Below, one piece after another: positions 1-824 of a stretch of 2,233 bases of DNA. The notes beneath the pieces are model-generated. The model saw only the letters and a program-made list of their open reading frames with translations. It was not told where the DNA came from and searched no databases. The translations under genes and the position numbers were made by a program. Within the stretch, counting starts at the first letter, position 1, and each line of letters begins with the position of its first letter. The DNA is from Naegleria gruberi. Taxonomy: Eukaryota. The DNA is taken from assembly GCA_000004985.1 (NCBI GenBank), contig GG739276.1. One strand, written 5' to 3'.

Positions 1-87
1 AAAATTTTCATCTTTTACAATCAACAAATTTTGACCTCTATTTGGATAATTGTTAATAATTCCTGTTTTACCACATTCAACCATCAT

Positions 88-99
88 CTATATGATAGA
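88..99 (+). promoter_or_regulatory. TATA-like element (ctatatgataga) about 25-35 bp upstream of the tRNA-like 5' end
   Basis: AT-rich TATAT motif at -34 to -30 relative to position 123. Upstream TATA-like elements accompany pol III tRNA genes in some eukaryotes (plants, yeasts). Weak, purely positional. Confidence 0.15.
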
Positions 100-122
100 A
101 ATATTTCATTTATTATGTGTAA

Positions 123-255
123 TCGGGTGTGGTATAGTGGTAGCATTCCAGACTGTCACTCTGGCGACCCGGGTTCAATTTGTTTTGTTAGTGTGTGAGT
201 TAGTTGAATGGTATCGGTCATTCCTTATTTGGAAATTTCATTCCCGGTACCCATG
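123..255 (+). tRNA. tRNA-Asp(GTC)-like gene, interrupted. The 5' 58 nt (123-180) are contiguous through the T-loop. The 3' T-stem strand plus acceptor 3' strand plus discriminator (243-255, CCCGG TACCCAT G) is displaced by a 62-nt insert (181-242) located between T-loop and T-stem. Probable pseudogene or tRNA-derived repeat unit (unit A).
   Basis: Read directly. Acceptor 5' strand tcgggtg (123-129). T8 G9 (130-131). D arm GTAT-AGTGGTA-GCAT (132-146) with an A-box-like TGGTATAGTGG. Anticodon stem CCAGA/TCTGG (148-152 / 160-164) with loop CTGTCAC, giving anticodon GTC = Asp. Variable region CGAC. T-stem 5' strand CCGGG (169-173). T-loop TTCAATT (174-180). The expected CCCGG does not follow the loop; it appears at 243-247, followed by TACCCAT. 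TACCCAT pairs with 5 of the 7 acceptor positions (mismatches at pairs 1 and 2). The stretch GACCCGGGTTC resembles plant-type cytosolic tRNA-Asp. Confidence 0.55.
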
Positions 256-262
256 GTATGAA
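231..262 (+). repeat. Conserved 32-nt 3' module, copy A: ggaaatttcattcccggtacccatggtatgaa
   Basis: 31 of 32 positions identical to the copy at 580-611. Contains the tRNA-like T-stem/acceptor 3' strand (CCCGG TACCCAT). Flanking TTTCAT/ATGAA inverted repeat. Embedded GGTACC and CCATGG palindromes. Confidence 0.6.
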
Positions 263-268
263 CGAGAG

Positions 269-272
269 TTTT
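269..272 (+). terminator. Short T4 run 14 nt after the tRNA-like 3' end of unit A; weak candidate pol III terminator
   Basis: gagagTTTTag. Four T only, in an AT-rich context, so weak. Confidence 0.2.
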
Positions 273-332
273 AGTTGTTAATCATTTCTCGAGTGGTTTG
301 GATGAAGTTACAGTTATGAATAATTATCAAGG

Positions 333-428
333 AATTGGCGTCACGGTAGTACATTAATAATGTGTTATTATTATATGTTAATTTGGCGTCACGGTGATTA
401 CTATGTGTTTTTAATAATTTAATATTAT
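333..428 (+). repeat. Two-copy tandem duplication with a period of 48 bp, sharing the core (A)ATT(T)GGCGTCACGGT
   Basis: aattggcgtcacggt at 333-347 and atttggcgtcacggt at 381-395 (14 of 15 identical). The downstream parts are similar but diverged (taataatgtgtt versus tactatgtgttt). GGCGTCACGG is the most GC-rich block in an otherwise AT-rich spacer. Confidence 0.5.
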
Positions 429-490
429 GACAACAATCGGTGGTGGTATCTGTTCAACAACAAATCATCATCAATAATTAATTAACAATC

Positions 491-508
491 AGTGACCTGA
501 AGGTCACT
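491..508. repeat. Perfect hairpin/palindrome AGTGACC-tgaa-GGTCACT (7-bp stem, 4-nt loop)
   Basis: Read directly. Lies in the centre of unit B. Confidence 0.6.
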
Positions 509-579
509 ATTTAATAAACAGTAATTTAATAACCCAATTTATTATTGTTATTTGGTTGTTGAAGTCATCTTCCAAATTA

Positions 580-611
580 GGAAGTTTCATTCCCGGTACC
601 CATAGTATGAA
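580..611 (+). repeat. Conserved 32-nt 3' module, copy B: ggaagtttcattcccggtacccatagtatgaa
   Basis: Near-identical to 231-262. Differs by A/G at position 5 and G/A at position 25. Confidence 0.6.
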
Positions 612-650
612 ATCTTGAAAGTGTATACTGTGATTGAAAAACCACCAGTG

Positions 651-669
651 AATGACTGTAACAGTCATT
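651..669. repeat. 19-nt palindrome aatgactgt-a-acagtcatt (9-bp arms), related to the AGTGACC hairpins
   Basis: Read directly. Preceded by cagtga, so that AGTGA-ATGACTG parallels AGTGA-GTGACCT upstream of 689-706. Confidence 0.55.
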
Positions 670-688
670 AAACCAACAAACCAAAGTG

Positions 689-706
689 AGTGACCTTACG
701 GTCACT
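689..706. repeat. Perfect hairpin AGTGACC-ttac-GGTCACT, with the same 7-bp stem as 491-508
   Basis: Read directly. Stem identical to hairpin 491-508, loop differs. Preceded by AGTGAG. The accttacg of the loop/stem is repeated at 729-736. Confidence 0.6.
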
Positions 707-771
707 GATGGTGTTTAAACAAGTGATTAACCTTACGTTTAAATATTGGAACTATGAACACTTCTAAAAAA

Positions 772-802
772 GGAAATTCAATTCCCGGCACTCGAGTAAT
801 AA
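772..802 (+). repeat. Diverged copy C of the 3' module: ggaaattcaattcccggcactcgagtaataa
   Basis: Shares GGAAAT-TCA-TTCCCGG-yAC with copies A and B and carries a perfect T-loop-like TTCAATT. The 3' half has diverged (CACTCGAGTAATAA). Followed immediately by T-runs. Confidence 0.4.
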
Positions 803-824
803 TTTTACATTTTCTGCTTTTTTT
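803..824 (+). terminator. Cluster of T-runs (TTTT, TTTT, TTTTTTT) immediately downstream of module C; candidate pol III termination signal
   Basis: tttt 803-806, tttt 810-813, ttttttt 818-824. Pol III terminates at runs of 4 or more T on the coding strand. The placement directly after a tRNA-derived unit is suggestive. Confidence 0.35.

Follow-up and report, generated by a model that had tools for sequence, protein, structure and literature searches.

Several described systems resemble the locus analysed here, a window of 2,233 nucleotides of Naegleria gruberi DNA (contig GG739276.1). Eukaryotic nuclear tRNA pseudogenes and partial duplicates share with it an Asp-GUC body with lesions, copies made at the DNA level with leader and trailer, a lack of CCA and invisibility to tRNA finders. 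The locus differs from such pseudogenes in the insert between two T-loop copies, the apparent re-duplication of the broken gene and the palindromes at the site of the anticodon arm. Pol III polycistrons joining a tRNA to hairpins are known from the TMERs (tRNA-miRNA genes) of MHV68 and from plant tRNA-snoRNA genes. They likewise show a tRNA-like element followed by hairpins and terminal T runs, but the present stems measure 7-8 bp and not >20 bp, T4 runs lie internally and no intact processing handle is found. Ectopic introns are a feature of nucleomorph tRNA genes also. In the disrupted, ectopic-intron tRNA genes of Cyanidioschyzon merolae and Archaea the interruption lies outside the anticodon loop, as it does here; these introns are described as bounded by a BHB and spliced (PMC3728597, PMC4090602), whereas our locus has no convincing BHB and carries further lesions. 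The tandem tRNA arrays of Entamoeba (PMC2652664) are made of co-oriented, head-to-tail, tRNA-containing units in AT-rich eukaryotic DNA. However, an Entamoeba unit holds one to five intact tRNA genes and is repeated many times at high identity (PMC2652664), whereas here there are only three detectable units, no intact tRNA and no signal from TRF. Plant satellites of ~180 bp, for which Benslimane et al. (1986, PMC311838, as listed in PMC4411372) proposed a descent from a tRNA gene, provide a parallel in that tRNA-derived units would have about nucleosomal length. Such satellites form long homogenised arrays, in contrast to the three heterogeneous units here, at irregular spacings of 349 and 192 bp. 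Finally, tRNA-derived SINEs and Helenus TRIMs (PMC10886601) join unrelated sequence to a head that resembles a tRNA and has A and B boxes, a layout that may recur in unit A. Such tRNA-like sequences in short retroelements inflate tRNA predictions, and these elements are predicted to yield no functional tRNA (PMC10886601).

In the present study, we propose that the region is probably a disrupted nuclear-type tRNA-Asp(GUC) pseudogene together with two decayed local duplicates, and that none of them would be functional. The locus looks like ordinary gene decay and not like a working RNA array. The features described below lie on the plus strand unless an inversion is stated. Unit A (121-262) contains at 123-180 the 5' three quarters of a eukaryote-type tRNA-Asp(GUC). 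Read from the sequence, its layout comprises the acceptor 5' strand (123-129), the D arm (132-146), the anticodon arm CCAGA-CTGTCAC-TCTGG (148-164, with the loop at 153-159 and the anticodon GTC at 155-157), a variable loop of 4 nt (165-168), the T-stem 5' strand CCGGG (169-173) and the T loop TTCAATT (174-180). The T arm is then split by a 55-nt insert (181-235) that opens with TGTTTTG, where a T4 run occupies 183-186, and closes with a hairpin TTCC-N6-GGAA (221-234). The tRNA resumes within 236-255 with a second T-loop copy TTTCATT (236-242), the T-stem 3' strand CCCGG (243-247), the acceptor 3' strand TACCCAT (248-254) and the discriminator G255. The tRNA-Asp identity features present are the loop CUGUCAC with its GUC anticodon, G73 (G255) and G10:U25 (G132:T146). 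An A-box-like TGGTATAGTGG (130-140) and a B-box-like GGTTCAATT (172-180) were matched by eye to the textbook consensus, with no statistic attached; by this reading they occur, among the three units, in unit A only.

The sequence-only reading had recognised a tRNA-Asp-like anticodon arm with GTCAC in unit A, and this is confirmed; it had missed the insert, and the tRNA is not intact. ARAGORN found no tRNA gene in the intact window. After deletion of 56-63 nt around 181-242, with 35 junction choices, it called tRNA-Asp(gtc) with start base 123, and removal of exactly 181-242 (~62 nt) gave an accepted tRNA-Asp of 71 nt. In Rfam, no tRNA family matched the whole window (cut-off E <= 1) or the part 100-830 (cut-off E <= 10); the output was noise only, consisting of bacterial sRNA models with E from 0.25 to 7.

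The ARAGORN result could be taken to mean that unit A works as a tRNA-Asp gene and carries a non-canonical ~62-nt intron in its T loop. The retained G73 and G10:U25 agree with this, and ectopic tRNA introns are described for a few eukaryotes (PMC3728597, PMC4090602); nevertheless, we consider such a gene extremely improbable. Under the criterion that both splice sites lie in 3-nt bulges around a 4-bp helix, the scan of unit A for a bulge-helix-bulge gave no convincing motif with Watson-Crick pairs at a usable junction. The placements were rich in AU and GU, and the sole one that yields a valid tRNA (183/243) is held by one A-U and three G-U pairs. The T-stem strands stand 69 nt apart (169-173 versus 243-247), leaving no contiguous cloverleaf. 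A cloverleaf forced around the insert reaches -18.2 kcal/mol, 18 kcal/mol worse than the unconstrained minimum of -36.4, so the precursor prefers another fold. In addition, the putative intron opens with a T4 run that would act as a pol III stop, and the same "intron plus 3' exon" was duplicated in unit C without the 5' exon. The acceptor stem forms five of its seven pairs (123-129 with 248-254): pairs 3-7 are made, while 1:72 is a T/T and 2:71 a C/A mismatch. The D-stem pair 12:23, read from the sequence, is an A/C mismatch. Unit A thus looks dead as a tRNA gene, and a chargeable product from it would seem to be ruled out.

We found that the last third of this tRNA recurs. The repeated 3' module of 42 nt (repeat family D1) includes the T loop, the 3' T stem, the 3' acceptor strand and a trailer of ~9 nt. 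With copy A (221-262) as reference, copy B (570-611) is identical at 37/42 positions (88%) and copy C (762-803) at 26/42 (62%), which bears out the module ends proposed earlier near 262, 611 and 802. The match of A with B is strong (blastn E = 7e-10; a local alignment score of 66, where shuffles reach at most 29), and the 20-nt module consensus GGAARTTYMATTCCCGGYAC has three matches against 0.00 expected. All three modules are preceded by GGAA(A/G) in place of the T-stem strand CCGGG, which suggests that the interruption is older than the duplications. Since module C retains the canonical TTCAATT-CCCGG (777-788) exactly, the ancestral insert would have been flanked by two identical 7-nt copies of the T loop. 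No CCA follows the acceptor strand, and the leader AATC and the trailer T(G/A)GTATGAA are common to A and B; the copies therefore appear to have been made from DNA and not from mature tRNA.

Upstream of the module, units B (435-611) and C (612-803) carry palindromes. Unit B contains the perfect palindrome AGTGACC-TGAA-GGTCACT (491-508; 7 bp stem, 4 nt loop) with GTCAC at 503. In unit C there are two: AGTGACC-TTAC-GGTCACT (689-706; 7 bp stem, 4 nt loop; families D2/D3), with GTCAC at 701, and the 8-bp palindrome AATGACTG-TAA-CAGTCATT (651-669). The palindromes reported before for B and C are thus real and perfect. Three GC-containing hairpins were observed where 0.32 were expected. GTCAC itself occurs five times on the plus strand, always within 121-805, against a null mean of 0.42, and none of 1000 shuffles reached five. 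The distance from GTCAC to the GGAA of the module is 76 nt in A, 77 nt in B and 71 nt in C, so that GTCAC in B and C stands where the anticodon stands in unit A. As this distance is alike in the three units, with the insert included in A, units B and C would descend from an already interrupted unit. The common tRNA 3' end and GTCAC at a conserved offset uphold the description of A, B and C as diverged tRNA-Asp-derived units.

For the 5' halves the likeness is less. The block AATCGGTGGTGGTAT at 435-449 (family D15) agrees at 13/15 positions with the leader and first 13 tRNA nucleotides of unit A, and a match with <=3 mismatches is expected by chance ~0.10 times per window, which makes it borderline. 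Of the 5' starts said to be shared at 121, 435 and 611, the first two are accordingly borderline and the third fails (8/25 against 121 and 7/25 against 435); AATC alone occurs 18 times in the window. Outside the anchor blocks, identity between units is at background level; when the sequence preceding the modules is aligned, 75 to 311 of 1000 shuffles score as well. Apart from the A/B match of 42 nt, pairwise comparison gave nothing with E < 0.005.

These last figures, with the chance expectation of the 5' block, are the grounds on which a sceptic could accept one small duplication (221-262/570-611) and attribute the third module, the 5' block and the GTCAC offsets to coincidence in AT-rich DNA, with no units at all. 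We judge this quite unlikely: the counts of the 20-nt consensus and of GTCAC lie far from their null values, the 71-77 nt offset is alike in three units, and all features keep one order and one strand.

The larger array proposed by the sequence-only reading, with four or five units of 175-190 bp continuing past the 5' edge, was not supported. For the supposed fourth module at 39-75, the local alignment score was matched by 29 of 300 shuffles and both profile searches returned nothing; bases 1-120 as a whole showed no similarity to the units by local alignment or profile searches. The segment 263-434 resembles no unit significantly in alignments or in the profile search. When it was tried as a degenerate unit, MAFFT aligned its GGCGTCACGGT with the module's ATTCCCGGT, but local alignment and profiles disagreed and the candidate was rejected. 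The quoted period of 187, 172, 177 and 191 bp rests on two boundaries (75 and 434/435) at which no module exists, since neither 39-75 nor 263-434 has significant similarity; the only supported module spacings are 349 and 192 bp. TRF, applied to 1-900 with a minimum score of 30, found no tandem array, and profile searches detected no further copies in the remaining 1.4 kb of the window.

The T runs within 803-824 are real: T4, T4 and T7 (803-806, 810-813 and 818-824) come directly after unit C. The read-through pol III transcripts that they were proposed to end are unlikely, because a T4 run (183-186) stands just past the B box and another at 269-272, 14 nt past the end of unit A. The latter is the site at which the original pol III terminator would be expected. 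A working polycistron, in which the promoter of unit A drives transcription up to the T7 run at 818-824 and RNase P and RNase Z release hairpin RNAs from B and C, was also considered. It would account for the placing of the strongest T runs only after unit C, for the tRNA 3' end at the end of each unit, and for the two 7-bp hairpins, which are identical at 16 of 18 positions with perfect stems and both differences in the loop. The folds of units B and C are also more stable than those of shuffled sequence (z = -3.6 and -3.7). But three T4 runs (183-186, 269-272 and 408-412) separate the sole A and B boxes from units B and C, stems of 7-8 bp are far below the length of a Dicer-type precursor, and no Rfam family matches. 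With acceptor-like end pairing of 5/7 in A and 3/7 in B, no RNase P/Z substrate is conserved. Such a polycistron is therefore, in our estimate, very improbable.

The hairpins nonetheless deserve attention, as some observations count against decay. Both differences between the 7-bp hairpins lie in the 4 loop positions of 18 (p ~0.04), which could reflect selection on the stem, counter to decay. The stable folds of B and C, the borderline A/B 5' block and the closing of the ends of unit C by a 9-bp helix are counted on the same side. The sequences of this helix differ from those of unit A, yet by a rough estimate it is not beyond chance (probability 0.04-0.2), and it was set aside as evidence of covariation. 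Moreover, similarity is mosaic, with the module closest between A and B and the hairpin closest between B and C, so the pseudogene reading must additionally assume gene conversion or unequal crossing-over. Such a pattern might be read as concerted evolution of ends and stems at a pol III locus specific to the lineage, where tRNA-Asp ends would serve as processing handles, perfect GTGACC/GGTCAC hairpins would replace the body, and the products would be small structured RNAs or protein-binding palindromes. We give this little more than a slight chance.

The units might instead be separate or nested dispersed mobile elements derived from tRNA that came to lie near one another, either SINEs or solo LTRs of a TRIM that bears a tRNA, as Helenus does. 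We regard this as unlikely, although tRNA-like sequences within short non-autonomous retroelements are documented (PMC10886601) and unit A, with its tRNA-related head, A- and B-box-like sequences and unrelated sequence after them, may resemble a SINE. Departing from SINE architecture, the tRNA 3' end is retained here but apart from the head. The units end in GTATGAA or GTAATAA, with neither an A-rich nor a simple-repeat tail, and no flanking target-site duplications can be read from the sequence (111-120 and 263-272 are unrelated). They abut head to tail in a single orientation, unit C following directly on the end of B at 611. At 907-927 the left part of the module recurs incompletely and in inverted orientation (18/21; E = 0.22). 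This would suit a dispersed element; against it stands the lack of other copies in the rest of the window. A Helenus-type TRIM, as defined in PMC10886601, has two near-identical LTRs and a short internal region with a PBS and a PPT. Units A and B are alike at their ends only (~15 nt 5' and ~42 nt 3'), unlike an LTR pair, and neither TG...CA termini nor a PBS nor a polypurine tract is evident, with no purine tract before 435. Nor are the two stretches between modules, 263-434 and 612-761, related to each other. The TRIM/LTR reading of A and B was thus rejected, as neither their interiors nor the "internal regions" show any relationship.

For the decayed, duplicated pseudogene, we infer the following course of events. 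A parental tRNA-Asp(GUC), expected to contain GACCCGGGTTCAATTCCCGGTACCC, would have received a 55-bp piece of DNA in its T loop, which left a T-loop copy (TTCAATT) at each side. The broken gene, with a few leader bases and ~9 nt of trailer, was then probably copied nearby as DNA at least two times, giving the three co-oriented units. As the copies diverged, B and C would have lost the D arm and the T-stem 5' strand and gained extra sequence in the 5' half. What had been their anticodon-loop GTCACT may have become the right arm of the palindrome, most simply via a template switch during replication, a documented origin of perfect hairpins (PMC8794818). If unit A is transcribed at all, the predicted product is a short tRNA-like RNA that lacks its 3' part and stops at the T4 run (183-186).

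The surrounding window has a matching character. It is AT-rich and non-coding under each stop-codon reassignment tested; coding under an alternative genetic code was rejected, since no frame is open beyond ~330 codons with one stop counted, and the standard code allows <=82 codons. CpG is under-represented and TpG/CpA over-represented, which is the pattern of neutrally decaying, methylated eukaryotic DNA. Relatives of the locus were not found by exact-pattern scans of viral contigs and GTDB genomes, by blastn against phage and plasmid records, or by a full-text literature search with sequence strings. The exact-pattern scan of metagenome contigs gave six matches, all of them unrelated chance sequence with 26-55% GC. 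Exact look-up of 10 window ORFs in a protein collection gave no match, and protein homology searches with a spurious ORF that crosses the tRNA-like unit, a pseudo-ORF on the minus strand and a kinase-like ORF gave no candidates.

As it stands, the locus carries little weight: it would be one more set of broken and re-duplicated tRNA-gene fragments, missed by tRNA finders and array-like to the eye, and would gain interest only with hairpins shown to be conserved or expressed. Within these bounds, the 7-nt duplication around the T-loop insert would record how the gene was killed. The palindromes, in turn, suggest that a former anticodon loop can turn into a perfect palindrome, as expected from template switching in replication.

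Direct reading of bases 123-180 showed most of a tRNA-Asp cloverleaf in unit A (121-262), the first of three co-oriented tRNA-Asp-derived segments (unit B, 435-611; unit C, 612-803; all features on the plus strand). These bases comprise the acceptor 5' strand TCGGGTG followed by U8 and G9, a D arm (GTAT-AGTGGTA-GCAT), an anticodon arm (CCAGA-CTGTCAC-TCTGG, anticodon GUC), a 4-nt variable loop, and the T stem 5' strand CCGGG leading into the T loop TTCAATT, which ends at 180. The D arm and the short variable loop are of what we take to be the eukaryotic cytosolic Asp type. A 55-nt insert (181-235) splits the T arm and is followed by a slightly altered second T-loop copy (TTTCATT, 236-242) and the 3' strand CCCGG-TACCCAT-G (243-255). 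No tRNA was found in the intact sequence by ARAGORN or Rfam, and after in-silico removal of 56-63 nt around 181-242 (35 junction choices) ARAGORN called tRNA-Asp(gtc). The acceptor stem is mismatched at 1:72 (T/T) and 2:71 (C/A), and the D stem at 12:23 (A/C). Judged from its sequence, unit A is a broken tRNA-Asp.

The copy of the 3' end in unit C keeps TTCAATT-CCCGG in canonical form at 777-788; therefore, the ancestral insert would have been bounded by two identical 7-nt T-loop copies. In our reading, flanks of this kind mark either an insertion that duplicated its target or a small duplication to which filler was later added. Ectopic tRNA introns carry bulge-helix-bulge (BHB) motifs (PMC3728597, PMC4090602), and the locus failed the defining tests run for that class. 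A geometry scan gave AU/GU-rich BHB placements only, and the sole one compatible with a valid tRNA pairs through one A-U and three G-U. Furthermore, an intron reading is opposed by the forced cloverleaf, 18 kcal/mol worse than the minimum free energy fold, by the opening of the insert (TGTTTTG), which sets a T4 run immediately past the B box, and by the mismatches at 1:72, 2:71 and 12:23. It is therefore very unlikely that the insert is an intron.

A 42-nt 3' module lies at 221-262 in unit A, at 570-611 in B (88% identical) and at 762-803 in C (62% identical). The A/B pair was the only strongly significant self-similarity within the window (blastn E = 7e-10 in self-comparison; local alignment score 66 vs a maximum of 29 among 300 dinucleotide shuffles). 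Copy C is weaker, yet genuine; the 20-nt consensus GGAARTTYMATTCCCGGYAC has exactly three matches in the window vs 0.00 expected. The 5' block AATCGG(G)TG(G)TGGTAT (121-135 vs 435-449, 13/15 identical) is only borderline, since about 0.10 chance matches with at most 3 mismatches are expected per window. Searches with profile HMMs of the three modules, and of the three 3' halves, found no additional copies in the window. The left portion of module C, with its TTCT-A6-GGAA hairpin, recurs in inverted form over 21 nt (907-927 vs 761-781, 18/21 identical), and this copy may be a fourth, inverted repeat fragment (blastn E = 0.22; weak nhmmer match).

The sequence-only reading had described a tandem array across 39-824. 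Its shared 3' ends at 262, 611 and in the 802 region were recovered; the regular period was not, the supported module spacings being 349 and 192 bp. A proposed fourth module at 39-75 scored at shuffle level (equalled by 29/300 shuffles), 263-434 aligned no better than shuffled sequence, and TRF reported no tandem repeat in 1-900. Since these segments are unsupported and further copies were not found, the period of 187/172/177/191 bp is an artefact of boundaries set at 75 and 434. The unit start placed at 611 agrees with the other two at just 8/25 and 7/25 positions. Overall, the observation was partly confirmed and its interpretation partly supported. An exact 13-nt direct repeat, TTGGCGTCACGGT (335-347 and 383-395, 48 nt apart), sits within a looser duplicated segment, roughly 48-57 nt long (354-371 vs 411-428, 83%); MAFFT pairs it with the module core ATTCCCGGT, and no statistical test supported its homology to the tRNA-derived units.

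In all three modules the T-loop copy is preceded by GGAA(A/G), not CCGGG, and the TTCC-N6-GGAA hairpin of the insert belongs to the repeated block. Units B and C would descend from an already broken unit. All five plus-strand GTCAC motifs of the window fall inside 121-805 (null mean 0.42; 0/1000 shuffles reach five), and GTCAC, which in A is the anticodon loop, precedes the module GGAA by 76, 77 and 71 nt in A, B and C, respectively. The probability of GTCAC lying within 5 nt of its expected place, given the module positions, is about 0.007, a post hoc estimate from the null rate. The enrichment and shared offset therefore make it reasonable, as had been proposed, to regard the B and C hairpins as counterparts of the anticodon arm. 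What was once loop sequence, GTCACT, now forms the right arm of a newly arisen perfect palindrome in each of them (AGTGACC-N4-GGTCACT; 491-508 in B, 689-706 in C), and there is one more perfect hairpin at 651-669. Three such hairpins (at least 7 bp, at least 3 G-C pairs) compare with 0.32 expected. Replication template switching is a documented source of perfect stems (PMC8794818) and could have made the B and C palindromes. The units could, with low probability, be a functional RNA locus. Folding z-scores were -3.6 (B), -3.7 (C) and -1.1 (A), and the low values of B and C are due to the perfect hairpins. Flanking the unit B palindrome, a 25-nt imperfect inverted repeat (453-477/539-563, 76% complementary) yields a hairpin-like stretch, some 111 nt long, which could be a small MITE-like insertion; the repeat may also be chance, as imperfect pairs of similar quality turn up in other parts of the window.

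The acceptor strand has no CCA after it, and A and B share a 9-nt trailer, T(G/A)GTATGAA, and a 4-nt leader; the copies, as we read them, arose at the DNA level. Similarity among the units is a mosaic, with the modules most alike in A and B and the hairpins most alike in B and C, and this suggests unequal exchange or gene conversion among neighbouring units. Read-through pol III transcripts had also been proposed. A polycistron of this kind seems unlikely, because the A-box-like TGGTATAGTGG (130-140) and B-box-like GGTTCAATT (172-180) occur in unit A only and T4 runs (183-186, 269-272, 408-412) precede B and C. The strongest predicted stops are T4, T4 and T7 at 803-824, and unit B retains 3/7 acceptor pairs.

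The window (2,233 nt, 32% G+C) resembles non-coding DNA from the nucleus of an AT-rich eukaryote. With the standard code no frame in it stays open beyond 82 codons, and no convincing coding frame appeared under any stop-codon reassignment tried. Across the window CpG is under-represented (observed/expected 0.66) and TpG/CpA over-represented (1.27-1.29), which suggests a eukaryotic genome with cytosine methylation; the depletion is milder in 121-805 (0.86) than in 806-2233 (0.58). A T-rich stretch of about 11-nt period directly past unit C (820-853, TRF score 38) and the AT-only palindrome ATATTATTATAATATAATAT (1814-1833) look like low-complexity sequence. In frame +3, 1053-1085 contains LSRYLESIGQGAFGSVFKC, which resembles a protein-kinase glycine loop (the match to Pfam Pkinase, E = 0.099, does not reach the threshold). 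GTAATG, a candidate 5' splice site, comes next, and a different frame has the tripeptide DFG at about 1171-1179, within 1138-1190. The two segments may be remains of a decayed kinase exon or a coincidence, and a word-index protein homology search with this frame returned no match.

No part of the window had relatives in viral, metagenomic, prokaryotic, phage, plasmid or protein collections. With lower probability, the units may be a SINE. Tails or LTRs, PBS/PPT and target-site duplications characterize SINEs and Helenus TRIMs (PMC10886601), and the locus failed the defining tests run for them. The same was found for Entamoeba arrays, which are long, homogeneous and built of intact tRNA genes (PMC2652664), and for plant tRNA-derived satellites, described as long arrays (Benslimane 1986, as cited in PMC4411372). 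The locus fits best as a tRNA pseudogene accompanied by local duplicates that have decayed, which is an ordinary kind of feature.
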